Origin: Candidatus Scalinduaceae bacterium
Lineage (GTDB): Bacteria; Planctomycetota; Brocadiia; Brocadiales; Scalinduaceae
Direction of reading: 5' to 3'
DNA: 52,321 nucleotides
Assembly (NCBI GenBank): GCA_046759445.1
Contig: JBHICG010000017.1
Location: 1 to 52,321, forward strand
Notes under the pieces: model-generated
Seen by the model: only the letters and a program-made list of their open reading frames with translations
Told to the model about the DNA's origin: nothing
The model's database searches: none
In this document: positions 4,534 to 23,689 of the stretch, one piece after another
Numbering within the stretch: position 1 is the stretch's first letter
How the letters are laid out: each line of letters starts with the position of its first letter
Position numbers and translations under genes: made by a program

Positions 4534-5727
4534 ATGAATCTGGTACCAAAAGAATTATTCGAATATATGGTTTCTATACGCCGCCGTATACACAAACATC
4601 CAGAGCTTGCATACCAGGAAGAAAATACTGCAGCAATTATTATAGAAGAACTAAACAAACTTGGTATAGAAGCAAATACAGGAATCGGAAAGACTGGTGT
4701 AATAGGTCGCATTTGTTCATCACATAATGCGGATCCCGCAGTGGCGTTAAGAGCTGACATGGATGCATTAGCCATTAACGAGAAAACAGGTCTTGAATTT
4801 GCATCTGAAATAAATGGTGTAATGCATGCCTGTGGTCATGATGGACACATTGCAATGCTCCTGGGAGCAGCAACTTTACTAAAGGAATCAATCAAAACTG
4901 GAAGTGTATTACTCGTATTTCAGCCAGCAGAAGAAGGAGGCGGCGGAGCTCAAAAAATTATGGACTCAGGATTACTTGCCAAAGCAGATGCAATTTTTGC
5001 CTGTCATCTGGACAGACATTTTAAGGTCGGAGAGTTAGTTGTACAGCAAGGTCCTATTTCGGCATTTACAGATAGATTCGACATCAACGTAAAGGGTAAA
5101 GGTGGCCATGCGGCACAACCACACGATACAGTTGATGCCATCGTAATAGCCAGTCTAATCGTAATGACTTTGCAGACAATCGTATCCAGAGAAGTAAACC
5201 CTATCCATCCATCTATCATATCAGTTGGCAAAATAGAAGGAGGTTCGGTACCCAACGCCGTAGCAGATAGTGCCAGACTTTCAGGTACAATACGTACAAC
5301 TGAAACACACGTGCGAAAACAGATAAAAGCAGGAATTCAACGCATCGCCAATGCGGCAGGCACACTCCATAATGCAGACGTTAAGGTTGAGTTTATAGAG
5401 GGGTATCCGTCTGTAATTAATACCATTGAAGAATCAAAGATTGCCCGACAGGCAGTCATAAATGCTATCGGAGACGAGGCGCTCGTTGATACCCAATACG
5501 TAACTATGGGAGGTGAAGACTTTTCCTTTTATCTTGAAAAAATCCCAGGATGTCTTGTAAGGTTAGGAGCACAGAAGGTTGGTCTTGAAAATGTTCCCGC
5601 ACACAGCTCTACCTTCGATTTTGATGAAAATGCTCTTGGTATTGGCGCTGTTTTCCTTGCAGAAGTTGCAAAATTATCTATTGACCATCTGATAAAGAAA
5701 ACGGCTGGCTCATCTTCCACCAACTAG
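4534..5727 (+). CDS. M20 family amidohydrolase (M20D type)
   Basis: HPELAYQE, LRADMDAL, MHACGHDGH, FQPAEEG, GGHAA, GEDFS. Confidence 0.93.
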   Translation: MNLVPKELFEYMVSIRRRIHKHPELAYQEENTAAIIIEELNKLGIEANTGIGKTGVIGRICSSHNADPAVALRADMDALAINEKTGLEFASEINGVMHACGHDGHIAMLLGAATLLKESIKTGSVLLVFQPAEEGGGGAQKIMDSGLLAKADAIFACHLDRHFKVGELVVQQGPISAFTDRFDINVKGKGGHAAQPHDTVDAIVIASLIVMTLQTIVSREVNPIHPSIISVGKIEGGSVPNAVADSARLSGTIRTTETHVRKQIKAGIQRIANAAGTLHNADVKVEFIEGYPSVINTIEESKIARQAVINAIGDEALVDTQYVTMGGEDFSFYLEKIPGCLVRLGAQKVGLENVPAHSSTFDFDENALGIGAVFLAEVAKLSIDHLIKKTAGSSSTN

Positions 5728-7886
5728 GGAGTGATATCTTTGATATGAGAAAGAATTTTCAAAAACCCCTTACTTTGTGTGGCTAACTTGTCCAGTTCTC
5801 TTATATGTTCATCTCTCAATTCCAATGATAATATCTCTTCACTCAACTGACTATTATCCATATTACCTGCTCCATACAACTTATCAGCAATAGCAACCTT
5901 AGCCTCAGCAGACAGATCAGAATTGATTATGACACCTCTTAGATTGACGTCCTCTCTACTTTCATTAGCCACCGTTTTCTGAAACAACCTGTCTTCTTCA
6001 CTCAGCCTTCCGACCACTTCACCTATATCTATCGATAATACTTCGGCAGTACGCCCTGTGACTGCTAGAACGCCTCGTTTAAATCCTAGGGTATCCTCTT
6101 CACTGGCCATGTGGGAGATTGTTCCCTTCTGCTGTGTTGTTAAAGATAACATCTTATTCCGCCTAAGATAAGTAAGAGTATAATGAGTAAGTTTTCTGGA
6201 AGAATCTACAATGTGAATATCTTTGCCTAAAAAACGTCTCCAAATATCATGTACTGCTTGTTCGAATACACCGTAATGAGTGCAGCCCAGAATAAGGGTA
6301 TCAATATTTTTCTCTATTAGAGGACGTAAATTTGCCTCAAGGATGGCTATAGTTCTTTCGTTCAGCGCCTTAGAATCCATTCTGTCAAACTCTACCATAT
6401 CAACTATAGTAGCTAACAACGGTGTTACAACGCTAAATATCTTTGCTTCTGGATCCTGATTTTTTATTTCCCGTATGTAGGCACCACTCTCTATCGTAGC
6501 TTTTGTCGCGATAATTCCTATAATCCTTGTCTTTATTCCCTTCGTTTTTCCAAAGCTTAAGGCTGCCTTAACAGCAGGTTCAATGGGACCAAGAATAGGA
6601 ATGGAAAATTCCTTAACTACCGTGGCTCTAGCATTAGCATCCATTGTGTTACAAAGGAGAACGATCTTAGCGCCTAAGTTATAAGCAGCCTCTACATATA
6701 TCCTACAAAGTTGCTTAATCCTTTTAGACGAACTTCCTCCAAGCCGCTTTGATAATACGCTGATTAAGACAACATCCTCTCTATCAAGACCTTTCAGCTT
6801 TGATAAATTCTCTTGTCCAATTGCAGGTGCAACTCCTGTGTCTAGGACTACGATTTGTCCATTAGGTTTATAGTCCCTAAACGGAAGGTACATCACGGCA
6901 AGAAGTCTTTTGATGGCCAGTATATCTTTGGCAATGGATGGCACCACCCCATATTTCTCATCAATTCTTGACACTTGTTTCCTGTAATGTTTTCCAGCCT
7001 TCGATATTTTAGAGACTAGTTCCTTCATCGCAATCGCGCCTCTTTTTGTCGCTCTCCACTCCTTCAGCCACATTAGTGCAGCATCATGATAGGGAGTTGC
7101 GAGTATTATTGCTTTATCTTTATCCCTTTCTTTTGTCTTCTTTTCCTCTTCCATTTGGTCATGTACTTTATACAAAGTATCAAGTAACTCTTTATCCTTA
7201 GGTGCCAGTAGATGTTTTAAAAGTAATGTTTTCAGCGCTTCATCCTCTACCCAGTTTAGTATCTGCTCATCAGTAGTTACACCATCCGGTTCAGGCCAGA
7301 AACCATCAGGACTCATAATGCGGTATTTGGTAAGTCTGTAACCTATCTCCCTTGAGAGCCTTGCTATCTCAGTCTTTGTCATGTGAAGTTCTACTGTTTG
7401 GGTTTGTCCTCTATTTTTATTAACATCTATCAGAGCTACGGCACAGCCAGCTCCCCCTAACTTCACATTATGAAGAGCATGGTACAAACTCTTTTCCATA
7501 GCTAATATCTCCACTTCCTCAAGAACCAGCTTTTCCACAATATCCTTTACATCCTCCAAAGAAGTCTTTCCAATTCTTTTAGGAAGATAGACTTGCTTGA
7601 TAAACTTTAGGACGCCCTGTCCGGGACCAAATGCAAGATTATGCTGAACAAGGAAGAGTTTAATTGGTTTGGTATTACCATCATCCATATTCAGGTCGAT
7701 TGTGTCTATAAATCTCTGCCTTGGCTCTTCCAATTGCTCGAATAAATGATGATGTATATTGAAGAAATTTTTATCTCTCTCTTGGAGAACGAGCTTGACT
7801 TTGGCGATACGACGATGTATTTTCCTTAAGGTAGTTGGTTTCTTTCGTTTTTTGCTAATTTCATGCTTTATGTGATCTGATGACAT
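5724..7886 (-). CDS. Fusion of a degenerate Glu-dehydrogenase substrate/dimerisation domain and a glutamate racemase (MurI-like) domain
   Basis: N-terminal VQHNLAFGPGQG, LGGAGC and PEPDGVTT align to GDH motifs; C-terminal LDTG, LCNT, IGIIATKATIESGAY and LGCTHYG are racemase motifs. Confidence 0.8.
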   Translation of the reverse strand: MSSDHIKHEISKKRKKPTTLRKIHRRIAKVKLVLQERDKNFFNIHHHLFEQLEEPRQRFIDTIDLNMDDGNTKPIKLFLVQHNLAFGPGQGVLKFIKQVYLPKRIGKTSLEDVKDIVEKLVLEEVEILAMEKSLYHALHNVKLGGAGCAVALIDVNKNRGQTQTVELHMTKTEIARLSREIGYRLTKYRIMSPDGFWPEPDGVTTDEQILNWVEDEALKTLLLKHLLAPKDKELLDTLYKVHDQMEEEKKTKERDKDKAIILATPYHDAALMWLKEWRATKRGAIAMKELVSKISKAGKHYRKQVSRIDEKYGVVPSIAKDILAIKRLLAVMYLPFRDYKPNGQIVVLDTGVAPAIGQENLSKLKGLDREDVVLISVLSKRLGGSSSKRIKQLCRIYVEAAYNLGAKIVLLCNTMDANARATVVKEFSIPILGPIEPAVKAALSFGKTKGIKTRIIGIIATKATIESGAYIREIKNQDPEAKIFSVVTPLLATIVDMVEFDRMDSKALNERTIAILEANLRPLIEKNIDTLILGCTHYGVFEQAVHDIWRRFLGKDIHIVDSSRKLTHYTLTYLRRNKMLSLTTQQKGTISHMASEEDTLGFKRGVLAVTGRTAEVLSIDIGEVVGRLSEEDRLFQKTVANESREDVNLRGVIINSDLSAEAKVAIADKLYGAGNMDNSQLSEEILSLELRDEHIRELDKLATQSKGFLKILSHIKDITP

Positions 7887-8202: not shown

Positions 8203-8454
8203 GTAAATAGTCTAATTTTTAACAATGAGGAAAGAGCTGATACCGTTAGAAGAGTAGAATTAGAGTTTGTTGTATCAGACGATAAAGTTGAAAAGGTTAT
8301 AGAAACTATTAGGAGTGTTGCTGCAACTGATCAAGGAGGTGATGGACGAACATACATATCAACTTTGGACGTTTCAATCCTTATTCATTCAGGTGATAAA
8401 CATCTGGGGGACGACAGTGAAAAAGGTTTATTGACTGATAAATTTGACAAATAA
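8203..8454 (+). pseudogene. 5'-truncated relic of a P-II paralog (copy of the 22517-22900 type)
   Basis: Not in the ORF track; reads ERADTVRRVELEFVVSDDKVEKVIETIRSVAATDQGGDGRTYISTLDVSILIHSGDKHLGDDSE*; no ATG; in-frame stop at 8200-8202. Confidence 0.85.
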
Positions 8455-8465
8455 GATGATGGCGC

Positions 8466-11400
8466 TTAATTCATAATTGCTTTTCTTGCACGCTCTGGTA
8501 AGGCGGATATTGCCCTCAAGAGGTCATCATTCTCAGATTTGGCGTTAGCAAATGAGCTAAAAAGATTGATAGCTTCCGCATATATGTCATTTATAATTAC
8601 TCTGATATTTTCATCTGTAATCTTGCCGGTATTCAACACCTTTTCCAGATTCGATATCAAAACGACATCTGTCCAGTAATCTAGCGGTATTCGCTTCATC
8701 AAATCATTACTCAGATAAGTAAGATGATCACGCACGGTGTTGAGTAAATCGTCTGTCAAATCCCCCCTCCCCCCCTTTATTAAAGGGGGATTAGGGGGGA
8801 TTACCATCCGAACAACCTCTCTGGATAGCTCGGCAACAGCGACACGTCCTATTGCCATAATGGAAGCCGCTGTCCTCATTTCAATCTTTCGTTCCTGTGA
8901 AATCTTGATAATGTCATCAAAAATCGCGCAAATATTATCCTCAAGCATGCCATTAATTTTTTTTAAGTTCCAACGTTCGTTTCTGAGATTTTGCACCCAT
9001 TCAAGATAAGACACATAAACACCTCCCAGATTTGTGCTGATATCGGGTGTTATAAAAGCGCCTTTTCTTGTCACAATTTTATCACCATCAGGAGTGATAG
9101 GTCCATTTGCGCCTTCTACTATAATTTTGGCCTTTACGTTATACGCATTCCTGTCTATGGCATTCTCAAGCGCAGCGAGGATCAGGAAGTCAACATCCAG
9201 GGCGAAAATACCCTCGTTTGTAATATCCCTTCCCCCCTGAAATCCTTTCAATAAGCCTGTGCCTGACGTATTCACATGTTTAAATACCGCATCTATGTCC
9301 AGACCATTAGGGTTATAGATACCACCACTGGCATCCGTAATGGCTACCACCTTTACGCCTGCATCGTGTAAAAATTTTGCAGGCGGCCTGCCGACATTAC
9401 CAAATCCTTGTATGGCAGCGGTTGCGCCTTTCAGATTTATGTTTTTATATTTGGCCGCTTTTTTTAAGGCAATAAACACTCCGCGCCCGGTTGATTCAAC
9501 CCTGCCGAGAGAACCTCCTTTAACGTCTGGCTTGCCGGTAACAACGGCAAGCGCCTGGCATTTTATTTCTGTATGCTTTTTTAATATCTTTATACATTTA
9601 TCAAGATAAGGAGTATCCACAGAGGATTCAGAATGCCTGCAAATTGAACGGAAATCATCGGCGATTTCTTCGGTTAATACAGTATCATCAGTAAGCCAAT
9701 CTGATAGGTCTTCTTTTTCTATAGAAGTCTTCAGGTATTCGTCTACAAACCATGCCATCTTTGTGGCATTTGTGTTGACGTCAGGCGCAGGTATGTCAAG
9801 ATGTGGCCCACACGCATTTCTGTTCTTCAATTCTCGGCTGTATTCTCTGATTATCAATGCGTCTTTTCGATCAAGATAGTTTTTTGGGTTTACTATAATA
9901 CCACCTTTTGAACCTCCGTATGGAATTCCTGCAAGGGCGCATTTCCATGTCATCCAAATAGCAAGAGCCCTGACTTCATCAAGTGATACTTCAGGATGTT
10001 CTCTGAAACCTCCTTTGGCAGGGCCACGAGCTGAATTATGGTGTACACGATAAGCAACAAATTCATCTTCCGTAAGCCGCATGGCCTCTATCCGTTCGGG
10101 AGTAAGTAATTTTTGTTTCAGAAATAAAGGAAGCTTAAGGATGTCCGCAACCACGGCAAATTGACTTTCTGCCACTTCGAGTGGACTTGTCATGGCAACG
10201 GCATGCTCCCGTATCTTTGCATATTCCTTAAGGGTAACACTGGGTACGGAAAACAATTGGCTGACTCTCTCAAATTCACCAATTTCTTTTTTGTAGTTAA
10301 TAATATTCTTCGCTACGTTATGTTTAATGTTGAGGAATTTTTCTAATTCTTCAACATTTGCGGCATTAAGGTTTATTTTATCCTTTACGTAACCTTTTGG
10401 CTTAAAGCGTATTTTTGTAGGAAGGTCATCTAAATGGTTAAGCGCCGTCAGTTCCTCACCAGCAAGGAATTTCAAACACGTTTCTCCCATTGTAGAAAGG
10501 TACGTTCTTGGAGGAGGAGTTTTCGTGCCAAGCCTTTTTTGTGCTGCAGCAACACTATGAAGGCCAAAGATAATCTTAGATTCCGCTTCATAGGCAAATA
10601 CATGGTCTAAAATCTGATTCGTGCCCTGGCAAAACACTTCATCTTCATACTTCCCTGCAATTCCGTCTAGGATGATGGTTTTTGAATCCCGCATCTTTTT
10701 CTTTATAAGGGCAACAGTATCAGGGCCAATATCGTATGCCTTCATCTTAGCGAAACGGCCCTTAATTTTATTCACCTTAACTTTTTCGGGATTTAGTCCC
10801 GTCAGCTTTGCCATAAGGTGGTCAACGGGAAGCGTTATGTCCACACCATATCCTTTTGCCATTTCCAGTACTATTGTCGCATTACGGAGGGCCTGTGCTT
10901 GTAAATCAGGGTCTTCTTCAAGCATACAGTTATCCACGTCATATCCCTGAACCTTAAGGAATGGAAATGCAACACCGCCAATGATAATCAGTTTATCAAC
11001 TTTCTCATAAACTATAAGGTTATTCATTGCCTCAACCTTGGCTAAGACGGTGGCGCCGCCAATAATTGCAACTACAGGTTTGTAGGGATTCCTCATGAAA
11101 TTATCAAGTATACTCAGTTCCTGATTAAGCAGGAATCCGGCCACTTTCTGGCCTGAAATAAACCTTGTTATCGGCCCGAGTGATGCATGGTGGCCTATAT
11201 GGGCTGTTACTGGATCGGCATTTACATAGATATCACAGTTAGTAGTATCGTGGAGTTGTCTTGCAAACTCCATAACCTCATTATCGTCCTCTGAGGTCTC
11301 ACCGCTGCGGAACATGACATTTTCCAGCAGAAAGACACCATCACCGCTTACGATGGACTTTGTTTTTCCCCCAATGCAGTCATCAGTTATGATAACCTCC

Positions 11401-11798
11401 TTATCTTTTGAGAGAAGCTTTTTGTCCCTTAAGATCTCTGTCAGTCTTTCTGCTACTGGTCTCAGGCTGTATGTTGAGTAAATCTCTCCATCAGACAGAA
11501 CCCCCACAGAGGTCTTCTTATCCTTAAAGAAGTTCTCCCTTCCACCGTTGTGTGATATTATAACAATCGTCCTCGCTCCCTGCTTAAGAATATGGCGAAT
11601 GTCCATGACAGTCGCCCTGATACGCCTGTCGTCTATAATCTTACCATCCCTGACGATGTCGTAGTTTACCCTTAAGAAAACCCTTTTGCCTTCTAAGGCC
11701 GACTTATGAAGATTTCGTATAGGCATCTTATTGGCATAAGGGTACCACTCAAACCCCACATCAGCCTGCTTTGCAATTTTCACATCTAATATCTCCAT
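8466..11798 (-). CDS. Multidomain protein: degenerate phosphoglycerate kinase + ComEA-like HhH + glutamate dehydrogenase + C-terminal extension
   Basis: PGK-like GKRVFLRVNYD, DDRRIRA, LLEN, YDIGPDT; HhH-like KINLNAANVEEL...; GDH motifs RGPAKGG, MTWKCA, GGSKGG, DIPAPDVNT, VVTGKP, IQGFGNVG, EGANGP, SYLEWVQN. Confidence 0.9.
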   Translation of the reverse strand: MEILDVKIAKQADVGFEWYPYANKMPIRNLHKSALEGKRVFLRVNYDIVRDGKIIDDRRIRATVMDIRHILKQGARTIVIISHNGGRENFFKDKKTSVGVLSDGEIYSTYSLRPVAERLTEILRDKKLLSKDKEVIITDDCIGGKTKSIVSGDGVFLLENVMFRSGETSEDDNEVMEFARQLHDTTNCDIYVNADPVTAHIGHHASLGPITRFISGQKVAGFLLNQELSILDNFMRNPYKPVVAIIGGATVLAKVEAMNNLIVYEKVDKLIIIGGVAFPFLKVQGYDVDNCMLEEDPDLQAQALRNATIVLEMAKGYGVDITLPVDHLMAKLTGLNPEKVKVNKIKGRFAKMKAYDIGPDTVALIKKKMRDSKTIILDGIAGKYEDEVFCQGTNQILDHVFAYEAESKIIFGLHSVAAAQKRLGTKTPPPRTYLSTMGETCLKFLAGEELTALNHLDDLPTKIRFKPKGYVKDKINLNAANVEELEKFLNIKHNVAKNIINYKKEIGEFERVSQLFSVPSVTLKEYAKIREHAVAMTSPLEVAESQFAVVADILKLPLFLKQKLLTPERIEAMRLTEDEFVAYRVHHNSARGPAKGGFREHPEVSLDEVRALAIWMTWKCALAGIPYGGSKGGIIVNPKNYLDRKDALIIREYSRELKNRNACGPHLDIPAPDVNTNATKMAWFVDEYLKTSIEKEDLSDWLTDDTVLTEEIADDFRSICRHSESSVDTPYLDKCIKILKKHTEIKCQALAVVTGKPDVKGGSLGRVESTGRGVFIALKKAAKYKNINLKGATAAIQGFGNVGRPPAKFLHDAGVKVVAITDASGGIYNPNGLDIDAVFKHVNTSGTGLLKGFQGGRDITNEGIFALDVDFLILAALENAIDRNAYNVKAKIIVEGANGPITPDGDKIVTRKGAFITPDISTNLGGVYVSYLEWVQNLRNERWNLKKINGMLEDNICAIFDDIIKISQERKIEMRTAASIMAIGRVAVAELSREVVRMVIPPNPPLIKGGRGDLTDDLLNTVRDHLTYLSNDLMKRIPLDYWTDVVLISNLEKVLNTGKITDENIRVIINDIYAEAINLFSSFANAKSENDDLLRAISALPERARKAIMN
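8758..8803. repeat. Palindromic element inserted in frame in the GDH fusion
   Basis: aatcccccctcccccctttattaaagggggattagggggga; encodes IPPNPPLIKGGRGD on the minus strand. Confidence 0.8.
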
Positions 11799-11899: not shown

Positions 11900-12820
11900 T
11901 CAATTACCTTTAATTATACGCTCTGCAAGCTCAAATGGGAGCCCGGCTTTAAGGATTTTTGCCTTTACTGCCTCTGTATTATACTCTGATTTTTTAAGAG
12001 AAATTTTCTGTGTGTCGGTATCATAAATCATATAAGAGGCTTTAGGAGTGCCGTCTCGCGGTTGTCCAACCGAACCGGAGTTTATGTAGTAACGTTGGCC
12101 TGCATTCAATATAACATCGAATACTTCTAACCTTTCCATTGATTCCCTTTCAACCAGCATAAGCCTGTTATCGTATTGGTCTACAGGGATGAATACGGAA
12201 GCATTAACGTCTCTTTTTTGTTTTGTATATAGATATGCAGCTGGCTTATGAGTATGACCCGCAAAGGTTATGTTTGAATAGAGTAAATTATAATTTAAGG
12301 TTGCTGCATTTCTTAAATATAAATAACCCTGAGGGTAAGTAGGTGTGCTGTGGACTAATTCTATTCCATATTTTCTTATTTTTTTTCTAAGCCATAGGGA
12401 ATTCAGGAAACGGAAGTTTTCTTTTTGTAAGACTTTGGTCGTCCACTTTGCAGCGTTGCCTGCTGAAGAAACCATTACACTACATAACGAAGGCTGTCTA
12501 ATCACCTCTCTGTCATGATTTCCAGCAATTACTACAGCCTTTTTACCCATAGAAAGGATACAGTCAGTTATCTTCTTTTTAGATGTATCATTGATATTAA
12601 GCTCCTCTATAATTGCGCAAATTTCACTTTTCAAAGATGATTTGCCATTTTTCAGAAATTTTACGATAGTACAGCATTCGTTTGGGTTGGCGCCATAACC
12701 AACTATATCTCCCGGTATCAAAATTTTGTCTATCTGTTCATTATCTTCGTAAAGGGATAAAAAAACAGAGGCAAGCGCCTCCAGATTACTATGAATATCA
12801 GCAATGATTGCAAATTTCAT
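11900..12820 (-). CDS. Calcineurin-like metallophosphoesterase (YfcE/PPP-like)
   Basis: ADIHSN, GDIVGYG, GNHD, GHTH, NSGSVGQPRDG. Confidence 0.92.
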   Translation of the reverse strand: MKFAIIADIHSNLEALASVFLSLYEDNEQIDKILIPGDIVGYGANPNECCTIVKFLKNGKSSLKSEICAIIEELNINDTSKKKITDCILSMGKKAVVIAGNHDREVIRQPSLCSVMVSSAGNAAKWTTKVLQKENFRFLNSLWLRKKIRKYGIELVHSTPTYPQGYLYLRNAATLNYNLLYSNITFAGHTHKPAAYLYTKQKRDVNASVFIPVDQYDNRLMLVERESMERLEVFDVILNAGQRYYINSGSVGQPRDGTPKASYMIYDTDTQKISLKKSEYNTEAVKAKILKAGLPFELAERIIKGN

Positions 12821-12827
12821 CTTTACC

Positions 12828-13640
12828 TCACAATATTTTTTCTAATGTTTGTTTTAATTCTTTTGCCGTTGATATCCTGTTAGTTGGATCCTCTTCTAAT
12901 GTTGCCATTATGATATCTTCTAATTTTTGAGGGATTAATTCATTAAGTTTTCTTGGAGTGGTTTTTACTTCCTTCCATTTTTTATTGGTTAAGGTCTCAT
13001 AAATAACTGCGCCTAACGAATATATGTCCGACCTATCATCTAGGGATAGGAAGAATGCAATTGCTTCCGGAGGAACGCCTTCAGGTGGATTCCTTAAATC
13101 TTTTAACAAAGCTTCTTGTTCAGGCGAGGCATAATCTCTACTAATTCCTTTTATAAGTCCAGCTTTTTTTATTGCAAGTTCGTAATCAATTAAATAAACT
13201 GTGCATGTATTTGGTTTCAACATTAGGTGGCCAGGTTTAATATCGCAGTGTAAATAATTTTTTGAGTGTAAATAATCCAAAGGGTCACAAACACTTATAA
13301 AACATTTAATTATATCCTCTAATTGGTCGATAGAATTCTGGTTTGTTTTTTCTTTGAAATATCCAACAAAATCTATATTACTCATATGATCAAGTACGAT
13401 ATAATGTTGTGTGAGCACAAAATTTTCCCCTTTAAAAAGGGCATTTCGCCCATATTCATAAGCCCTAGGTATCTGCTTATGGTTTAATTGCAGTAATACG
13501 CAGTATTCATCTTCAAAGTCCAAGTTAGGGTTATATTTTATACCGAGCCGAGGGTCGTTATCTAAAACTGCATAGTTTGACTTATGCAAATCCGCATCAA
13601 CTTTGAATGAACTGAATATGTAATCCTTTATTTTGTACAT
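12828..13640 (-). CDS. Atypical Ser/Thr (Hanks-type) protein kinase, paralog 1
   Basis: HCDIKPGH, LIDYELA, YASPEQ, SDIYSLG; start placed at MYKIKDY (13640) by comparison with its paralog. Confidence 0.88.
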   Translation of the reverse strand: MYKIKDYIFSSFKVDADLHKSNYAVLDNDPRLGIKYNPNLDFEDEYCVLLQLNHKQIPRAYEYGRNALFKGENFVLTQHYIVLDHMSNIDFVGYFKEKTNQNSIDQLEDIIKCFISVCDPLDYLHSKNYLHCDIKPGHLMLKPNTCTVYLIDYELAIKKAGLIKGISRDYASPEQEALLKDLRNPPEGVPPEAIAFFLSLDDRSDIYSLGAVIYETLTNKKWKEVKTTPRKLNELIPQKLEDIIMATLEEDPTNRISTAKELKQTLEKIL

Positions 13641-13935
13641 AACTCTTATATATACTACACTCTTGAAAATTTGACAAGAACATAATAGATAATTTAGATT
13701 GAAAAGTCCTTGCAGATAGCAATATTTTGTAAGCTTCCAAGAATGTGATACTGGCTGGAATAAACCACACATCCAGTTAAAATTAAACGCAATCTGTTTC
13801 TAAAACTGGATATGTCATTAGTGACAGGTTTTTCACAATAAATGATTTCCTATAACTCCTTTTATCTTAAGTACTAATAAAATTATTAATGACAAATTTA
13901 ACGTGCTTAAAGTTATTTACAAGATTTTTGTTAAT

Positions 13936-13951
13936 TGGCCAAGAATATGCT
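13936..13951 (+). promoter_or_regulatory. Putative sigma54 (-24/-12) promoter for the amt-glnK-amt operon
   Basis: TGGCCAAGAATATGCT has GG-N10-GC spacing. Confidence 0.6.
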
Positions 13952-14300
13952 TGCTAATGCTATTTTGAAACAATGGAATATTAACGGGTTAAGTGTTTTT
14001 TTGTATTATGCATGCATTTCAACGTCTGCTTCGCATAAGGGACAACCATGAGGACCAAAAGTCTTGTCTTCTTTTTGATTGCGTGGATTGATGGGGATGA
14101 ACGCATGAGACTTTAATTGTATGGTGAACATTTTTAAGCAGAGAATTGGGGATATCATAAAGGAACCTATACAATAAAGAGTTATATATTTTACAGAAAG
14201 CTTTATACATAATTAAGAAAGGAGGTTTTTGTAGAATAAATTTTGTGATCTATGTAATGATAATTTTAAGAGTGTTGTAAAAGAAAAAGGAGGGAAATCT

Positions 14301-15860
14301 ATGGGATATTTGTATAGTAGAGCTAAAAGATCATATATGGTATTTCCAATCATATTTATATTATGCCTTTTTTATTTTGGTTCAAACATAGCGTTGGCTA
14401 GTGATCCAACAGGTGAGAGTATTTTTGCCTTGGACTTTAGGGGTTTAAATGTATCCGATAGTTTTTCATGGGTTTTATTGACTGGTTTTATGATATTATT
14501 TATGCAGGTAGGTTTCATATTTTTAGGAGGGTTCCTTCAGGCAAAGAATGTGTTGAGCTATATGACACATTGTTTTCTTGCCACCACGCTTGGCGCACTC
14601 ATATACTTGTTCGTAGGTTACGCATTCATGTTTGGAGGATTCGAATTTATGGATACACACCTGGGTGGAGGCAATTCATTCATAGGGTGGAGTGGCTTTT
14701 TGTTATTGGGTGAAGCTTATGATATAAGAACGGTAATGCTGTTCCTGTTTCAGGCTGTTATAGCTACATTTATAGGCAGCATAATCGCAGGCGCTGTTGC
14801 AGAGAGGATGAAGCTTATCGCTTATGTACTTTCATTTTTCTTTATTTATACAATTATCTATCCTTTATACGGTCATTGGATATGGGGAGAAGGATGGTTG
14901 TTCAACCTTCCATTTGGTGTTGGTGCAAGGGATTTTGCAGGCTCGGGAGTAGTTCATGCAATTGGAGGCTCTATAGCTTTTACGGGAGCCTTGCTTCTAG
15001 GGCCAAGGATTGGTAAATATAGTAAAGATGGCACTCCGGGATTTATACCAGGTCATAATGTTGGTTATATGATTCTTGGGACGGTACTCCTGGCGTTTGG
15101 TTGGTTAGGCTATGATGCCGGTAGTACCTTAGCTGCAGGAGATTTTCGTGCCTCCGTAGTAGCTGCAAATACTTTTATTGCTGGAGCAATGGGGGCTGTT
15201 ACAGTACTCTATTATACTTACCTGAAAACGGGCGCTTCAGATATAGGTGAAGCATGTAATGGTTTTCTGGCTGGCCTGGTTGCCATTTCCGCATCATGCG
15301 CTTATGTCGCACCGTGGGCTGCAGTTGCAATAGGGTTTTTGGGAGGGATAGTATACGTAACTTTCGTATGGTTTGTTGAACACAAACTTAAAGTTGATGA
15401 TCCTCTTGGCGCAGTATCGGTTCACGGCGCAAATGGTCTTTGGGGCCTGCTTTCCATAGGCATCTTTGCTGATGGCACTTATGGAGGAGTTTCTGGCGTA
15501 ATAACAGGAAATTTTGGACAGTTATTTTCGCAATTTATTGCATGTATAGTAGCAGTTGCCTGGGCGGGTGGTCTAGGTTGTCTAATGTACTATGTACTTA
15601 AAATAACTATAGGTATAAGGGTATCCGAAAAGGTAGAATTAGAAGGTCTGGATGTAAACCTCCACGGTTCTCCATGTTATCGACTTCGAGCAGGGGTTGA
15701 AGCTCCCTTAGGCGCAGAAGTAGAAGGTGCAGAAGTAGAAGAAGCGGAAGAACAAAGGGAAACTGCAATACTGGAGGCAGCATTTGCCAAGGACGCAAAG
15801 AGAGAGAAGATTTACTCAGAAAAACTTGGCATATGGATAACTGCAAAGCCGAAAGAGTAA
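14301..15860 (+). CDS. amt: Ammonium transporter (Amt), non-canonical gate, ~60-aa acidic C-terminal tail
   Basis: FMQVGF, GAVAERM, DFAGSGVVH, DDPLGAVSVHG; strong RBS aaggaggg. Confidence 0.95.
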   Translation: MGYLYSRAKRSYMVFPIIFILCLFYFGSNIALASDPTGESIFALDFRGLNVSDSFSWVLLTGFMILFMQVGFIFLGGFLQAKNVLSYMTHCFLATTLGALIYLFVGYAFMFGGFEFMDTHLGGGNSFIGWSGFLLLGEAYDIRTVMLFLFQAVIATFIGSIIAGAVAERMKLIAYVLSFFFIYTIIYPLYGHWIWGEGWLFNLPFGVGARDFAGSGVVHAIGGSIAFTGALLLGPRIGKYSKDGTPGFIPGHNVGYMILGTVLLAFGWLGYDAGSTLAAGDFRASVVAANTFIAGAMGAVTVLYYTYLKTGASDIGEACNGFLAGLVAISASCAYVAPWAAVAIGFLGGIVYVTFVWFVEHKLKVDDPLGAVSVHGANGLWGLLSIGIFADGTYGGVSGVITGNFGQLFSQFIACIVAVAWAGGLGCLMYYVLKITIGIRVSEKVELEGLDVNLHGSPCYRLRAGVEAPLGAEVEGAEVEEAEEQRETAILEAAFAKDAKREKIYSEKLGIWITAKPKE

Positions 15861-15964
15861 TCAAAAAGTAACAATAAAACAAATTTTAAGATGTTACTTT
15901 TCTTTACTGTTAATGTAAATTTGAGGTTTTATTATTTTATTGTTTTTGGCTAAAGGAGGTTTTT

Positions 15965-16303
15965 ATGAAAAAGATAGAAGCTATCATACGTCCTGAGAAA
16001 TTTGATATTATTAAGGATGCACTGACAGAGAAAGGTTATGGTGGAATGTCTGTTACAGAGATAAAGGGACATGGCAATCAAAAAGGCGTAAGTGAAGTAT
16101 GGAGGGGAAAGAGGTATAAAGTAGATCTACTTCCAAAGGTAAAGCTTGAACTCATTGTTGCTGATGATGTCTGCGATGACGTAGTAAAGACTGTTATTTC
16201 AGAAGGTCAAACTGGTAGTATTGGAGATGGGAAGATATTCGTTTCAGACCTATCAAATGTTTACAGGATCCGTACCGGGGAACAAGGTGATTCAGCCATT
16301 TGA
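15965..16303 (+). CDS. glnK: P-II nitrogen regulator
   Basis: [35 protein letters not shown]; adjacent to amt. Confidence 0.95.
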
Positions 16304-16390
16304 GAATGTAAACCTCACAATGTCTGCTCATAACTTTAATGAGTGCTGAGTGTAAAACCAAAGCCGGTAGAATATACTGAAAATACTATG

Positions 16391-16436
16391 ATCAGCGGTC
16401 AAAGTTTTATATACATACAACATTTTGACCGCTGAT
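16391..16436. repeat. 13-bp inverted repeat between glnK and amt (possible RNA hairpin)
   Basis: atcagcggtcaaa ... tttgaccgctgat. Confidence 0.55.
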
Positions 16437-16524
16437 ATTCTTATGAGCTTGTGATGTAATACGATTTTCTAGGTCTGATTTTAGAGACATTTTGCAGTTT
16501 TTAAATGTTCTGATAATGAAAGTA

Positions 16525-17907
16525 ATGATGAAAAAATGTATTATTTGGATATTGTTTCCAACTGTTATAGCTTGCGTGTTGTTTGCTGCCTTCCAAGACA
16601 CCGAAGCAAGTGAACCAGGAAGTGGTTTCATAATCCACTCAGAAATCAGAGATATAGAAGGGTTAAGGATATCTATTAACATTGCCTGGACGTTGTTATG
16701 TGGTTTCCTTGTCTTTAATATGCAGGCGGGTTTTGCGTTCCTGGGCTCAGGATTCTTGCGAAAGAAAAACACCTTAAACTATCTAACGATGAGTTTTATG
16801 GATTTTTGCGTTGGCGCCCTCATATTTTGGGCTTTTGGCTTTGCGTTAATGTATGGCGGCTCATCTGTTGCCTCAGGCCTTGACAAAGGAAATGCCCTTA
16901 TAGGTCTTAGTGGTTTTTTCCTGGCAGGCAATGCTTATAATGCTTCTACATCAGCTACATGGTTATTCCACATGATGTTTGTAGTTGCTACATGTACAAT
17001 TGTGGCAGGCGCTGTTGCTGAACGCTTTAAGTTCCATGCACACTTATTATACAGTATGATACTTTGTGGCTTCTTATACCCCATTTATGGTCACTGGGTA
17101 TGGGGTGGAGGTTGGTTGTCAAATCTTCCGTTCGGTTCTGGGATGAAGGATTTCGCAGGTGGAGGAGTGGTTCATGGTATAGGTGGAATTGTTTCTTTTA
17201 TAGGGGCATGGATGGTTGGCCCAAGGTTCGGCAAGTACAATCCTGACGGCACGCCAAACATCATTCATGGCCACAATCTCTCTTATATAGTACTTGGAAC
17301 ACTCTTTCTATTATTTGGTTGGTTCGGCTTCAATGTAGGAAGCACCTTGGCTGCCACTGATTTGAGGGTTTCAATCATTGCAACTAATATGTTCCTTTCT
17401 GCAATCACGGGGGCGATAACCCTTTTATACATTTCGTACATTAAAAACAAAAGATCTGACATTGTTATGGCATGTAATGGTGCTTTAGCAGGCTGTGTGG
17501 CTATTACGGCTTCCGGCGCTTATGTGCCCCATTGGGCTGCAGTGGTTATTGGCCTAACTGCAGGTTTCATATTAATGTCTTGCTTATATATTATGGAATA
17601 CAAATTAAGGATAGATGATCCCATCGGAGCTATTTCCGTTCATGGGGCAAATGGACTATGGAGCTTACTTTCTGTTGGTATCTTTGCCGATGGCTCCTAT
17701 TTGGGGGTAAGAGGACTGATAACAGGTTCTGGATGGCAACTTTTGTCACAGTTCATTGGATGTGTTACACTCATAGTTTGGACATTTTGCGCTGGTTATC
17801 TAATATTCCTGTTACTGAAGAAAACCATTGGTTTAAGAGTCCCTATCCAAGAAGAAAACGCTGGGATTGATTTATATGAACATGGGCTTTCTTGTTACTC
17901 TGACTGA
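16525..17907 (+). CDS. amt: Ammonium transporter (Amt)
   Basis: MQAGF, GAVAERF, DFAGGGVVH, WFGFNVGS, DDPIGAISVHG; start could be 16516, 16525 or 16528. Confidence 0.93.
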   Translation: MMKKCIIWILFPTVIACVLFAAFQDTEASEPGSGFIIHSEIRDIEGLRISINIAWTLLCGFLVFNMQAGFAFLGSGFLRKKNTLNYLTMSFMDFCVGALIFWAFGFALMYGGSSVASGLDKGNALIGLSGFFLAGNAYNASTSATWLFHMMFVVATCTIVAGAVAERFKFHAHLLYSMILCGFLYPIYGHWVWGGGWLSNLPFGSGMKDFAGGGVVHGIGGIVSFIGAWMVGPRFGKYNPDGTPNIIHGHNLSYIVLGTLFLLFGWFGFNVGSTLAATDLRVSIIATNMFLSAITGAITLLYISYIKNKRSDIVMACNGALAGCVAITASGAYVPHWAAVVIGLTAGFILMSCLYIMEYKLRIDDPIGAISVHGANGLWSLLSVGIFADGSYLGVRGLITGSGWQLLSQFIGCVTLIVWTFCAGYLIFLLLKKTIGLRVPIQEENAGIDLYEHGLSCYSD

Positions 17908-17934
17908 AAAATATTCTCTTCCTTATTTCAAAGG

Positions 17935-18199
17935 AGTGTAACAACAATGGAGGTAAAAGGTAACGGGAAGCAAAAAGTTGTTGAAGAAATATGGAGGAGG
18001 ACAAAGATACAAGGTCGAGATGTTACCAAAACTAAAGTTAGACCTGGTTGTTCCAGATGATGCTGTAGATAAAATAGTAAAGACAATAATAACTGAGGCA
18101 AAGACCGGTAGCGTTGGTGATGGCAAAATATTTGTGAGTGATGTAGATACTGCGTACAGAATTCGGACGGGTGAGGAAGGTGACGCTGCCATAACATGA
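17935..18199 (+). pseudogene. glnK: P-II (glnK) pseudogene with N-terminal deletion and a frameshift
   Basis: One frame gives SVTTMEVKGNGKQKVVEEIWR; an extra base near 17997 shifts to GQRYKVEMLPK...RIRTGE; the first ~27 aa are missing. Confidence 0.85.
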
Positions 18200-18295
18200 A
18201 ATAGTTTTCAAATGGAATTGGCCCAAACGAATTCTACTGGATTTTGGCAAATATATAGATACAACAAATAAAATGTCTAAGTGGGTGGATTGAAT

Positions 18296-18338
18296 AAAAC
18301 CTGTGTCTTACTGAGAAGACACAGGTTTTTGTTTTTTT
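18296..18338 (+). terminator. Rho-independent terminator
   Basis: aaaacctgtgtctt-actgag-aagacacaggtttt followed by a T tract. Confidence 0.85.
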
Positions 18339-18424
18339 GAGGAACAGTTTTTTAATCAAGTATACATTACTTCGAAATATTAATATTGTGTGAATTTAAG
18401 ATTACATTTATAGTGTAATAATCT

Positions 18425-18613
18425 ATGTATTTTCTGATAATATGTGAAAAAAAACGATTATACTACGAAACATTTGACGACAGAAAATCATTAGAAGAAC
18501 ACATAAACAGTCGTAAAAGTTTTTTTTATAAGAAATTTAAAAACAATCAGGCGTATATCGTAAAGGGAGAAGAAATCTTTACTGCCAAAAAGCACCCGGA
18601 TGAAACGGAATAA
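18425..18613 (+). CDS. Small hypothetical protein (62 aa)
   Basis: ATG-started ORF in an otherwise empty gap, co-oriented with the kinase; no recognised motif. Confidence 0.5.
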   Translation: MYFLIICEKKRLYYETFDDRKSLEEHINSRKSFFYKKFKNNQAYIVKGEEIFTAKKHPDETE

Positions 18614-18678
18614 GCATTTCTCTAAATAAATAATGCGATATCATGTATTAATTAATTTTTTCAATGAGGTTAATAATT

Positions 18679-19488
18679 ATGTATAAGTTAGGAAAATATC
18701 AATTTGAAAGTTTTAAATACAGACCCGGTCACAGGGCAAATTATGCTGTTTTAACCAAACCCGGAAATAGAGAATGGGGAATGAAGTACTCACCTACTTA
18801 CACTTATGCCAGTGAGTATGATGTGCTGAAGAAATTTTCTCATCCACAGATTCCAAAACGATATGATTCCGGGCGGGAGGAATTATTTGAAAACGATAAA
18901 TTGGTATTGAGAGAACATTTCATCGTCTTACAACATTTTGAAGGCGAGGACATTGTAGAATATTACAAGCAGAAGGGTCTACCAGATTCTGATGAGATAG
19001 AAAATATTGTTAAATACTTTGCAAGTATCTCCGAACCTTTACAATATCTCCATTCTAAGGGATATGCTCATACTGACATTAAACCAGGTCATCTTATTGT
19101 TGACCCAGATACGGGAACAGTTGGCCTAATTGATTTGGAGCTAGCCATAAAAACAGGAGAACTTATAAAGGGTGTGACCATAGAATATGCGTCACCTGAA
19201 CAAAAGCAGATGAACAATTTATTGAAAGATGTCACAGACAGCAGGGGTGAAAAGGCCGTTTTAAAGCAGGTGAAGGTTAATGGAAGAGCTGATTTATACT
19301 CTATTGGGTTAATATTGTATGATGTATTAACGGGTAAATTACGGGCAAATACAAACAATCCTCTAATAGAAATTAATAAAGCAATTCCACAGAAATTGAA
19401 TGAAATAGTTTTGGGACTCCTTGAAGATGACCCGTCAAACAGGATATCTTCGGCAGAGGAACTTAAAGAGGAATTAGAGAACGTGTGA
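18679..19488 (+). CDS. Atypical Ser/Thr (Hanks-type) protein kinase, paralog 2
   Basis: HTDIKPGH, LIDLELA, YASPEQ, ADLYSIG; collinear with 12828-13640. Confidence 0.88.
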   Translation: MYKLGKYQFESFKYRPGHRANYAVLTKPGNREWGMKYSPTYTYASEYDVLKKFSHPQIPKRYDSGREELFENDKLVLREHFIVLQHFEGEDIVEYYKQKGLPDSDEIENIVKYFASISEPLQYLHSKGYAHTDIKPGHLIVDPDTGTVGLIDLELAIKTGELIKGVTIEYASPEQKQMNNLLKDVTDSRGEKAVLKQVKVNGRADLYSIGLILYDVLTGKLRANTNNPLIEINKAIPQKLNEIVLGLLEDDPSNRISSAEELKEELENV

Positions 19489-19545
19489 AACCAGTGATTA
19501 GGAGGAAAAGAAGATTAGAAGTTGGGAGGATAAAAGATTTGAAAG

Positions 19546-19682
19546 ATGAGGAAAAACAGTAATAATATTTTAAAACATTTCAGGGACCCTGACGTATGTC
19601 AATTAACATTTAATTGTGCAATGAAAATATTTCCTCAAGAAGAGAAATATTCACTTGTTGATCAATCCGGCGATCATCCTAA
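19546..19682 (+). pseudogene. Relic of a four-helix-bundle (23S rRNA IVS-like) gene
   Basis: MRKNSNNILKHFRDPDVCQLTFNCAMKIFPQEEKYSLVDQ then frameshifted IRRSS*; preceded by degenerate gaagatta-type repeats. Confidence 0.7.
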
Positions 19683-19703
19683 CCTCTTTAATGCGTTCCA
19701 GAC

Positions 19704-20216
19704 ATGACTCTAGATAAAATAAATGCGGTTATTAATAACATAGAAAAGCTCAAAATGATAATCAGAGACCCAGAACAATTTCTTATAAATAAATATTATA
19801 ATTTAGGGGCCCCAAATGGATTTCGTATAGAACTCCTCACCGCAAGGAAATACAATCTAATTTGTGATAAACTTAAACAGTTTCACTTTGCACATTTTGA
19901 AACGACAGATAGTTGGTTAGAAAAAGAAAAAATGATAAACATGATTCCTGTCAAAAGAATAAGGGAAGTTGTTGCAAGCCATTCATTGGCAAAAAAACCA
20001 AAAAAACTTTTTTGCCCGTACTGTGAAAAATCTGTCATTCCAAAGCGGCTTCATAAATTGGATTTAGTGGATATTGTCCTTTTTCTAATCACTGGAGGTA
20101 TATGGGCAATCTTACTTTTTACGATATATATCTTCATAAGGAGATGCCCTGTTTGCAATTATAACATGAGAGGATTTAAGCCTCTTTCTGAAAACAAAAA
20201 GATAATAGATAATTGA
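19704..20216 (+). CDS. Hypothetical membrane protein with a split Zn-ribbon (LITAF-like layout)
   Basis: CPYC, a hydrophobic hairpin, then CPVC. Confidence 0.7.
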   Translation: MTLDKINAVINNIEKLKMIIRDPEQFLINKYYNLGAPNGFRIELLTARKYNLICDKLKQFHFAHFETTDSWLEKEKMINMIPVKRIREVVASHSLAKKPKKLFCPYCEKSVIPKRLHKLDLVDIVLFLITGGIWAILLFTIYIFIRRCPVCNYNMRGFKPLSENKKIIDN

Positions 20217-20235
20217 ATGTATGGTATTCGAAAGA

Positions 20236-20295
20236 GCCACTAAGTTACTAAGACACGGAGAAGGAAATAATGACTTATCTTAGTGTCTTGGTGGC
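20236..20295. repeat. Short inverted element built from 8-nt units
   Basis: gccac-taagttac-taagacac ... cttagtgtcttggtggc. Confidence 0.55.
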
Positions 20296-20320
20296 AAGAC
20301 TGTTTGACGGATACTCAATA

Positions 20321-20364
20321 ATAAGAGGCGCTGTCTATTTTTCATAATAGACAACGCCTCTTAT
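20321..20364. terminator. Hairpin between convergent genes, likely terminator
   Basis: ataagaggcgctgtctatt / aatagacaacgcctcttat. Confidence 0.7.
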
Positions 20365-20444
20365 CTATAACCTCGCCCTCACTGTTACTAATAACTCAAA
20401 CAAGAATCAAGGATTAGAATATAACACGTTAATCAATGACTTGC

Positions 20445-21791
20445 TTATCTCCTCAGCGTGCTTACGGATTCTAATTGTAGATGATAAGCAATCTCACCAT
20501 GTTGAGTGATATCGAGTCCCTTCTCTTCCTCTTCTTCCGTCGTCCTTAATCCTACAGTATACTTGACAATTAATACAATAATAATACATACGGCAACAGT
20601 AAATGCCCACGTAGCTAAAATACCCACACACTGCTTACCTAGCTGGGTGAGTCCTACCATATCCCAACCAATGAAAAATCCATACACTCCACTACCTTTA
20701 CCTGTTACTAATTCAGTGGCATAGAGCCCAGCGGCAAATGTACCGATCGTTCCACCAATAGCGTGTACTCCAACAACGTCCAGGGCATCATCAAAACCAA
20801 AAAGGGGTTTTAACTTAGTAACAGCAAAGTAGCAACCCACCCCGGCCATAATTCCAATTTGAACCGCACCCAGAGGGCCGACGAAGCCACTGGCAGGTGT
20901 TATGGTTGCTAATCCTGCAATTGCGCCCGTAAGTGCGCCCAGAAATGTTGGTTTCCCTGTAATTAACCATTCGCATACTATCCATACGAATGCAGCAGTA
21001 GCGGCAGAGGTATTAGTCGCCATAAATGCAAACGCAGCCCTACCATCAGCAGCAAGTGCGCTACCACCATTAAAACCAAACCAACCAAACCATAATAAAC
21101 CTGCTCCTAGACACACCATTGGAAGGTTGCAGGGCGGTGTTATATTTTTTCTCTTACGCGGCCCCAGCATCACGGCTAACGTAAGCGCGCCTGCTCCACA
21201 GCATACGTGCACAACCAGCCCACCTGCATAGTCCAAAATGCCCCAGTTGCCCATCCAACCACCACCCCATTGCCAATGACATATTGGATCGTACACAGCG
21301 GTTGCAAAAAGTGGTGCAAAGAGTAACATTGCGCTAAATTTCATACGACCCTCAACTGCCCCCAATACCAGGGCTACTGTGATAACGGCAAACATACACT
21401 GAAATATCATAAAGGTATACTCAGGTATGGTGTTGGCTATTTCCGAAATGGAATCAGGAGTTATACCACGCAAGCCAGTTTTAGCAAGACCTCCAATAAA
21501 ACCTCCATAATCAATACCAAAGGACAGTGTATAACCCCAGAAAATCCATTGAACACTTATGATAGAAATACACATAAAACACATCATGAGCATATTGACT
21601 ATATTTTTTACAGAACATAAACCTCCGTAAAACAAACAGAGGCCAGGAGTCATGAGGAGAACAAGCGCTGCTGAGGCGAGGATCCACGCATTGTCACCTT
21701 TATCAAGAGTACCCTCGTTTGCCCATGCCATAGAAGATGTTGTCACCATAAAGACAAATATTAAAATCGTTAAATAACCAATTTTTTTCAT
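20445..21791 (-). CDS. amtB: Ammonium transporter AmtB (canonical)
   Basis: LMTPGLCLFYGG, FQCMFA, DYAGGLVVH, WFGFNGGS, DDALDVVGVH. Confidence 0.96.
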   Translation of the reverse strand: MKKIGYLTILIFVFMVTTSSMAWANEGTLDKGDNAWILASAALVLLMTPGLCLFYGGLCSVKNIVNMLMMCFMCISIISVQWIFWGYTLSFGIDYGGFIGGLAKTGLRGITPDSISEIANTIPEYTFMIFQCMFAVITVALVLGAVEGRMKFSAMLLFAPLFATAVYDPICHWQWGGGWMGNWGILDYAGGLVVHVCCGAGALTLAVMLGPRKRKNITPPCNLPMVCLGAGLLWFGWFGFNGGSALAADGRAAFAFMATNTSAATAAFVWIVCEWLITGKPTFLGALTGAIAGLATITPASGFVGPLGAVQIGIMAGVGCYFAVTKLKPLFGFDDALDVVGVHAIGGTIGTFAAGLYATELVTGKGSGVYGFFIGWDMVGLTQLGKQCVGILATWAFTVAVCIIIVLIVKYTVGLRTTEEEEEKGLDITQHGEIAYHLQLESVSTLRR

Positions 21792-21879
21792 TCGTTTAAC
21801 CTCCTTTTAAAGTATCGTTCTGAACATCCTACTTTTAAATACCTTGTTTTAAAAATCATGTTACCACAATACATTATTT

Positions 21880-22230
<351 letters not shown>

Positions 22231-22264
22231 CTATTTTAACAATAACAGTTTTACAAGGAAAATT

Positions 22265-22280
22265 AGCATATCGTGTGCCT
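22265..22280 (-). promoter_or_regulatory. Putative sigma54 promoter of glnK-amtB
   Basis: Minus strand AGGCACACGATATGCT, GG-N10-GC, ~47 nt upstream of the glnK ATG. Confidence 0.7.
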
Positions 22281-22516
22281 AACCACGACAAACAATTATA
22301 TTGTTGCTTAAGTATTAATATATAAGACTTTATAATTCTCTTATTTTGAAAAATAATATCTGCCAATTTTGTATGGTCGGCTCATATACACCAATGAGTT
22401 TTTTGTAATAGTCAAATATTCGCCAATTATCCCACTTAATATAAGAGGTTTTGATAGCATAATCTGACTATATTATATTCTGCGGATTGTGTAATTCATT
22501 GATTAAAAACATTACC

Positions 22517-23450: not shown

Positions 23451-23477
23451 GATAAGTGGCGCTCCGCGCCACTTATC
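23451..23477. repeat. Perfect 12-bp hairpin, preceded by a degenerate copy at 23401-23428
   Basis: gataagtggcgc-tcc-gcgccacttatc. Confidence 0.7.
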
Positions 23478-23689
23478 ATACAAGCTAACGACTCACTCTT
23501 ACACTACAAAAACTATTCCTGTCTACGACATGCCATTGGCCTGACAGTTTTAAGGAATTTTGGTAACTACACCAAATAACTAAATAAACTTTTAGAACCT
23601 CAGCCGATTAGCCAAGATGACCTTGACTTGACAGCGGGCACCTAAATAAACCCTATATGCGCTTATGTAAGCATTGCGTAGCAACGCCT

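Follow-up and report, generated by a model that had tools for sequence, protein, structure and literature searches.

Why would a glutamate dehydrogenase (GDH) of an anammox lineage carry the fold of a phosphoglycerate kinase (PGK) at its N-terminus? The question is raised by one gene of Candidatus Scalinduaceae bacterium (assembly GCA_046759445.1), located in a stretch of 52,321 nucleotides of contig JBHICG010000017.1 that is referred to here as the window. A first-pass annotation had described the gene as a triple fusion of a dead PGK, a helix-hairpin-helix (HhH) domain and a GDH, and had proposed a sensor that ties carbon or energy status to ammonium assimilation. The answer developed below is that the PGK domain is probably a regulator of glutamate turnover, because its kinase chemistry is lost and yet the domain is strongly conserved. 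We see about an even chance that the protein is a GDH with a built-in pseudoenzyme regulator, whose PGK-fold sensor probably recognizes an adenine nucleotide.

The gene is a single open reading frame (ORF) of 1110 aa on the minus strand, with no internal stops, and all four Pfam domains of a PGK-HhH-GDH order were found in it: PGK (aa 33-448, E 1.6e-76), HHH_3 (aa 473-531, E 8e-12; 45.5 bits, cut-off 27), the GDH dimerisation domain (aa 580-688; 141.6 bits, cut-off 25.3) and the GDH NAD domain (aa 761-991; 225.8 bits, cut-off 23.4). A domain-architecture search recovered the same order in 34 further full-length 90%-identity clusters (72-81% identity, four Pfam domains each), whose named members are Candidatus Scalindua, Brocadiia or Planctomycetes. 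In a survey of 92 genomes of the order, the fusion was identified in 23 of the 28 genomes of the window's family (19 whole, three cut by contig ends in G076, G081 and G083, and one frameshifted in G088), and also in G091 of the sister family f5. It was found in 0/63 of the other order members (absent from 47/47 genomes of f4, to which the type genomes of Brocadia and Kuenenia belong, 14/14 of f3 and 2/2 of f2), where only separate PGK and GDH genes score. The fusion is a marker gene of the Scalindua-group marine anammox lineage. No close stand-alone pseudo-PGK is present among the best 120 of 1260 matches, in which identity drops from 77-82% (fusion fragments) to 37% or less, nor is there a close stand-alone form of the GDH half among its best 120 matches, the nearest stand-alone GDHs being 41-46% identical.

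An origin of the fusion in faulty assembly was rejected, since the whole ORF is present in 20 separate genome assemblies; the junction check also returned single DNA contigs spanning both domain junctions in runs X1 and X2, which may be the window's own source. Among the irregular copies, the G088 orthologue (G088:C28:33707-37019, L031) has a frameshift near aa 272 that leaves 280 + 844 aa, by assembly error or real loss. The protein collection entry P0333 holds only the last 384 aa of the fusion gene, and in P0059 the PGK start is joined directly to the GDH end, probably by mis-assembly.

Structure prediction bears out the assignment of the first ~460 aa to the PGK fold: the model of this part (pLDDT 86) matches 1php best (TM 0.78/0.90, rmsd 2.7), with the reservation that it leans towards canonical PGK because the input alignment consists mostly of canonical PGKs. 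Identity of the domain to canonical PGK is 33-37%. A set of 21 canonical anammox PGKs has 222 conserved columns; 20 fusions keep 94 of these, have lost 103, the catalytic ones among them, and are mixed in 25. Residue roles were taken from PMC7729029, with the numbering counted from the alignment to 1php. Residue counts out of 35 refer to the homologues of the fusion. The Mg-binding Asp (D352 of 1php, aa 415) is S, G or C in 35/35 and Asp in 0/35 (S415 in this protein), and the glycine loop carries L413 and H414 in 35/35. The position that we take to be equivalent to the catalytic Lys, aa 250, is K in 0/35 (T250 here), and the closure Asp (aa 253) is D in 1/35. The phosphate-binding arginines at aa 86, 162 and 201 are R in 4/35, 2/35 and 2/35, respectively. 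Of the site for 3-phosphoglycerate (3-PG; Asp23, Asn25, His62, Arg65, Arg122, Arg170), this protein retains the His alone, with G86, M162 and I201 in place of the arginines, and the Asp23/Asn25 pair is exchanged (N45 in 35/35, D47 in 32/35). The domain has the two-lobed fold of an EC 2.7.2.3 enzyme and neither its 3-PG site nor its Mg-nucleotide site, and it looks to lack kinase chemistry, as the first-pass annotation had held. The eight altered motifs on which that view was built all occur in the translation as quoted, but some of the letters are special to this genome (at T250, 30/35 homologues have N, as do 32/35 at D378). A canonical PGK is encoded elsewhere in the genome, on contig C76, so the pseudo-PGK would have been freed from its kinase role.

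A dead domain could still be on its way to disappearance; however, neutral decay was rejected at a dN/dS of about 0.11. In 20 orthologues, with split copies left out, the value is 0.109 by a Nei-Gojobori script (128/190 pairs usable, saturated pairs dropped); in the same 11 genomes, it is 0.106 compared with 0.072 for canonical PGK. The IQ-TREE omega, estimated for the PGK domain alone, is 0.133; the dN/dS values of the other domains below come from the script, again with saturated pairs dropped. Invariant columns number 164/435. It is thus highly improbable that the gene encodes a working PGK, is an assembly artefact or carries a decaying remnant: the name phosphoglycerate kinase in databases and the one frameshifted copy (G088) would fit such readings, against which stand the 103/222 lost canonical columns with the catalytic ones among them, the 20 whole ORFs in independent assemblies and the constraint just described. 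The pattern, catalytic residues lost and domain conserved, is the one by which a pseudoenzyme regulator is recognized. In a quick tree (46 rows), the PGK domain forms one clade with a long stem (1.35 + 0.59 changes per column) followed by short branches. The earliest branch, G091, has all three arginines, R86, R162 and R201, and its Mg site is already gone, which suggests that the loss of phosphoryl transfer came before the erosion of the 3-PG site. A PGK copy may have been joined ahead of the GDH in the Scalindua-group ancestor, have lost phosphoryl transfer and then have been kept.

The GDH part looks catalytically intact at the level of its residues. Of the catalytic and coenzyme positions, 13 were checked, and every one is invariant in 35/35 homologues; K595, K619, K631, D673, S930, G798, G800 and G803 are each found in 35/35 when aligned to stand-alone GDHs, so the three lysines and the dinucleotide glycine motif had been correctly read. 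We take these to be the three active-site lysines, the catalytic Asp (D673), the glutamate-specifying Ser (S930) and the GxGxxG motif. With both Pfam domains and the active-site residues present, the part belongs to the small ELFV GDHs. Compared to 21 stand-alone anammox GDHs, it keeps 106 of 166 conserved columns, with 51 lost and 9 mixed, and the dN/dS values of its two domains are 0.078 and 0.052. The coenzyme domain is closest to 3k8z, deposited as an NAD-specific GDH, with which it has D822-A823 in common; the Pyrococcus enzyme has Asp-Ser there, and the Asp-Ala pair presumably points to NAD.

Calling the protein a triple fusion is right for the three modules and an undercount of its parts, as a 58-aa insertion and a 117-aa helical tail are also there. 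Alignments to solved GDHs are interrupted between aa 689 and 749 by the insertion, whose counterpart is present in a 720-aa neighbour and in a 914-aa family (alignment, hhalign; see below). For the tail, which follows the GDH, Pfam and Atlas gave no match, and the fold comparison nothing more convincing than helical bundles of a generic kind. At a dN/dS of 0.24, both insertion and tail change more quickly than the other parts, with invariant cores retained. In addition, the first beta-hairpin of the GDH domain is 7 residues shorter than in stand-alone GDH. A short palindromic repeat of G/C runs lies in frame within the tail (window 8757-8803, about aa 1001-1014); it has 11 further matches in the genome, is worn in relatives of genera g1 and g3, is missing in G064-G067 and G091, and looks like an old in-frame insertion into a loop.

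The HhH domain between the two enzymes has the fold of ComEA (8dss: Z 8.1, rmsd 2.4, 64 aligned in the structural match), and neither hairpin has both glycines of the Gly-hydrophobic-Gly pattern in consensus. The first hairpin has N/K/E at 490 and K/E at 492, so that the glycines of the genome's own ComEA are not kept; in the second, G520 is present in 29/35 and T522 in 31/35. In HhH domains the hairpin glycines contact DNA. Because the paired hairpin glycines are missing, we read the domain as a spacer or interface. A trigger enzyme that binds DNA or RNA through the HhH, to regulate genes or to localise on nucleic acid, would suit a clear ComEA-type domain with a dN/dS of 0.12, but it is very unlikely given those hairpins and several invariant acidic residues.

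Which ligand could the PGK fold still hold? Among the retained positions, K254 (= K201) is kept in 35/35, E385 (ribose) in 30/35 with Q in the remaining five, and N378 in 32/35, and A354, Y355, D356, G358 and F278 are invariant in the 35 homologues. R59 is found in 34/35, H83 and H200 in 35/35, and R58, N84 and R87 are new invariants near the cleft. Since the phosphate arginines are mostly gone and the adenosine contacts mostly kept, a nucleotide fits better than 3-PG; judging from these residues, 3-PG sensing may suit the ancestor and a nucleotide the present-day members better. Metabolite sensing by the PGK domain with control of the GDH is a plausible prediction. In the mechanism we favour, the fold would most likely bind an adenine nucleotide without Mg (AMP or ADP type), and the opposite half of the cleft may take up a small anion that is not phosphorylated; hinge movement would be relayed by HhH spacer, insertion and tail to an active small-type GDH, probably hexameric and NAD-linked, and glutamate/2-oxoglutarate turnover would be tuned to energy status. 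The full-length AlphaFold2 model (pLDDT 49, pTM 0.33) is too poor for domain packing, and the score of 0.00 given by a prediction of the PGK-fold domain in complex with the GDH part, in a run without controls, speaks neither for nor against an interaction.

Several observations weigh against this mechanism. N378, a kept nucleotide contact, is D378 in this very genome, the Val that flanks the adenine (V321 of 1php) is K383 in the family, and L413/H414 could block the nucleotide pocket altogether. Moreover, the conservation of the PGK domain shows a function but not which one, and coenzyme preference read from sequence is weak evidence. Finally, 5/28 family genomes (77-94% complete) are without a fusion copy, and in G088, of the same genus, the gene is frameshifted inside the PGK domain. 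Alternatively, the PGK-fold domain could be a ligand-free scaffold that lends the GDH oligomer stability or shape, or that serves as a docking site for another protein. Many family-specific invariants lie outside the old cleft (N-terminal extension aa 17-24, insert aa 84-104), and L413/H414 may fill the phosphate site. The first hairpin of GDHs builds the two-fold interface, and its shortening by 7 residues may have altered assembly here. We hold the scaffold to be unlikely, as R59, H83, H200, K254, Y355 and D356, from both cleft halves, are among the best conserved positions and new charged or polar invariants arose in the cleft itself. A cleft remodelled to catalyse a different reaction, with a substrate that carries no phosphate, would make the protein bifunctional and could account for the fixed replacements (N45/D47 swap, R58, N84, R87, H414 and E439 in 32-35/35) and for the long stem followed by strong constraint. 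This new enzyme is decidedly improbable, as a replacement for the Mg ligand or the catalytic Lys is not evident, and the presence of R86, R162 and R201 in G091 with their later loss fits a loosening site better than a catalytic one.

The fusion may not act alone, since its 720-aa neighbour in the window has related parts. This protein has GDH domain I (probability 97.8 against a deep GDH profile) without its lysines, lacks the NAD domain and probably keeps the final helices of a GDH, judging from BLASTP against the 914-aa family and from a profile match that is weak (E 0.003 vs 0.32 for the control); both cysteines of its racemase domain (C412, C535) are invariant in 9/9. The insertion-bearing GDH regions of fusion and neighbour match with an hhalign probability of 92.9 (E 3.8e-7). 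The 914-aa form is a whole degenerate GDH with a racemase, found in 8/47 f4 genomes (records of Kuenenia, Brocadia and Brocadiaceae). As the insertion is shared by the fusion, the 720-aa and the 914-aa proteins, they would descend from one insertion-bearing GDH ancestor, which gave an active GDH with a dead kinase on one side and a dead GDH with a racemase on the other.

This common descent, the retained GDH core with a dN/dS of 0.13, and the joint presence of both genes in 20/28 family genomes favour a heteromer, in which the 720-aa protein co-assembles with the fusion GDH as GdhA does with GdhB in Thermus, coupling racemisation and deamination, an idea compatible with the regulated GDH. However, the 720-aa gene is present in 25/28 family genomes, in five of them without the fusion, and the fusion stands without it in G065, G070 and G087 (92, 96 and 89% complete) and in G091 (95%). 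The two genes are adjacent here only (0/20 fusion loci and 0/18 racemase loci elsewhere), and the genomes with the 914-aa relative carry no fusion, so that this relative can act alone or with an ordinary GDH. Co-assembly is thus attractive from the sequence relationships, not obligate, and we regard the heteromer as rather unlikely. Still more doubtful is a full glutamate hub, in which the PGK-fold domain senses the adenine nucleotide and switches the NAD-GDH, and the 720-aa protein joins the oligomer via its retained GDH core. If it were true, energy status would gate the supply of anammox with ammonium made from the D-/L-glutamate of peptides and cell-wall debris, and there would be a molecular handle on organic-nitrogen use by marine anammox.

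Other copies of these racemase proteins were also noted. In records of Kuenenia and Brocadiaceae, genes for the 914-920-aa form are found at L105:8013-10763, L107:8007-10757 and L101:5842-8604, where they lie downstream of a CADD-like gene, a gene for a 525-aa protein (no NCBIfam match at 1e-8), presumably glutamate-synthase-like, and a Rid-family gene. The 720-aa protein of G066 and G067 is extended at its C-terminus by about 200 residues that belong to no known family, and the genome of the window also has a stand-alone racemase on C6.

The proposed tie to ammonium assimilation is doubtful. In the window, the gene follows a Ser/Thr kinase and a metallophosphoesterase and stands beside four amt and three P-II genes, but a conserved context of this kind was rejected, as 0/20 orthologous loci are beside amt/P-II genes and the 18 window neighbours are matched in 0/20 orthologous fusion loci. 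Since the placement is peculiar to this genome, the context lends no support to ammonium assimilation. The recurrent neighbours in the 20 loci elsewhere are an acyltransferase (9), a glycine C-acetyltransferase-like gene (8, in 7 of them with threonine dehydrogenase) and a UbiD gene (6); the 720-aa gene is beside amt/P-II genes in 3/18 other loci. In addition, the coenzyme site resembles the NAD type, NAD-type GDHs are mostly catabolic, i.e. deaminating, and a stand-alone GDH (C7), two more ELFV dehydrogenases, glutamine synthetase and glutamate synthase are encoded in the genome as well. Deamination, giving ammonium for anammox and 2-oxoglutarate, is slightly more likely than assimilation.

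GDH stands at the point where carbon metabolism meets nitrogen metabolism, and the regulators of bacterial GDHs known to us are separate proteins. The antenna of mammalian GDH lies after the NAD domain, in contrast to the fusion's insertion, which is located between the two domains and shows no sequence likeness to it. The two nevertheless have in common an insertion of about 50 residues in a small GDH, in the mammalian case with nucleotide allostery (PMC9570180). The closest solved relatives are the small hexameric GDHs (Thermotoga 1b26/2tmg, Pyrococcus 1gtm, NAD-specific 3k8z/3k92), which are the best solved matches at E 4e-102 and are alike in the two-domain fold and in all catalytic and coenzyme residues checked; they lack the 460-aa PGK-fold head, the HhH, the 58-aa insertion, the 117-aa tail and the shortened hairpin. 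Canonical PGK (PF00162; 1php, 1vpe) has the fold, the 33-37% identity and largely the adenosine-side contacts in common with the fusion. In the latter, the Mg ligand and the catalytic Lys are replaced, and so are the glycine loops, the closure salt bridge and the larger share of the basic patch.

The GDH of Thermus thermophilus is regulated by the dead GdhA and by the AMP-binding dead APRTh (10.1101/2025.10.31.685773, PMC9570180). There, control of a GDH by dead enzyme homologues has been shown, where here it is predicted; the Thermus regulators are separate chains of GDH and phosphoribosyltransferase folds, whereas here a PGK fold is fused in cis. For PGK itself, PMC7729029 describes kinetoplastid PGKL (PGK-CNB-HTH), with a conserved, predicted-inactive PGK domain in a multidomain protein, and the Thermotoga PGK-TIM fusion; the former is eukaryotic and without a second enzyme, the latter has an active PGK, and in this source neither is joined to a GDH. 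The sections seen of a Kuenenia paper treat anammox GDHs only as ordinary assimilation enzymes (PMC7438415), and for Scalindua peptides have been proposed as an extra ammonium source (oligopeptide transport section of PMC3655542).

No published account of the PGK-HhH-GDH fusion was found in a literature search that missed most subscription papers; within the literature searched, the fusion is undescribed, and it is mis-annotated in databases as phosphoglycerate kinase, an annotation trap. If the favoured mechanism is true, the reuse of a PGK fold for a regulator fused to its enzyme would be a new solution, and the protein would be the first bacterial dead PGK with a clear target among searchable papers. 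The features of the locus are collected in Table 1.

Table 1. Fusion gene, its domains and the related neighbouring gene in the window
Feature	Position	Strand	Remarks
Whole fusion gene	8466..11798	(-)	1110 aa: pseudo-PGK, HhH, GDH with insertion, helical tail
Pseudo-PGK domain, aa 24-458	10425..11729	(-)	Pfam PF00162, model and fold match, column analysis, dN/dS
ComEA-type HhH, aa 472-533, hairpin glycines partly lost	10200..10385	(-)	Pfam HHH_3; match to ComEA 8dss
GDH substrate/oligomerisation domain, aa 536-690, with K595, K619, K631, D673	9729..10193	(-)	
Lineage-specific 58-aa insertion between GDH domains, aa 691-748	9555..9728	(-)	Alignment gap vs solved GDHs; hhalign
GDH NAD(P)-binding domain and C-terminal helices, aa 749-992, D822-A823	8823..9554	(-)	
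Helical C-terminal tail, aa 993-1110, without family match	8466..8822	(-)	Palindromic repeat inside, ~8757-8803
Related neighbour, 720 aa, dead GDH core and Asp/Glu racemase domain	5724..7886	(-)	Candidate partner subunit

Promoter and terminator scans were within the range of shuffled sequence (34 vs 27.1 +/- 5.4 and 10 vs 6.5 +/- 3.5, respectively). For RNA runs X3 and X4, which belong to one study and consist of contigs only, every bin of the gene is covered, and X4 covers the intergenic stretch in addition; coverage of this kind cannot show transcription. In the transcript table of Scalindua profunda (PMC3655542), a second gene named phosphoglycerate kinase, scal01433, has a relative coverage of 2.05; its reads/coverage point to a length of about 520 codons, which would make it a candidate for the PGK-HhH half.

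Elsewhere in the window, the stretch 11900-25078 holds a cluster of four amt and three P-II genes, with two short Ser/Thr-kinase-like genes and one metallophosphoesterase gene. In G064, G066 and G067, too, kinase genes stand with amt genes, a hint at phosphorylation control of ammonium transport. A stand-alone protein of 192 aa with a DICT sensory domain is encoded at 33334-33912 (-). At 8227-8454 (+) there is the 3' part of a P-II gene (Pfam E 2e-6), without a start or 5' half and 69% identical to the P-II gene at 22517-22900; the fragment may be a remnant of the rearrangement by which fusion and racemase gene became neighbours.

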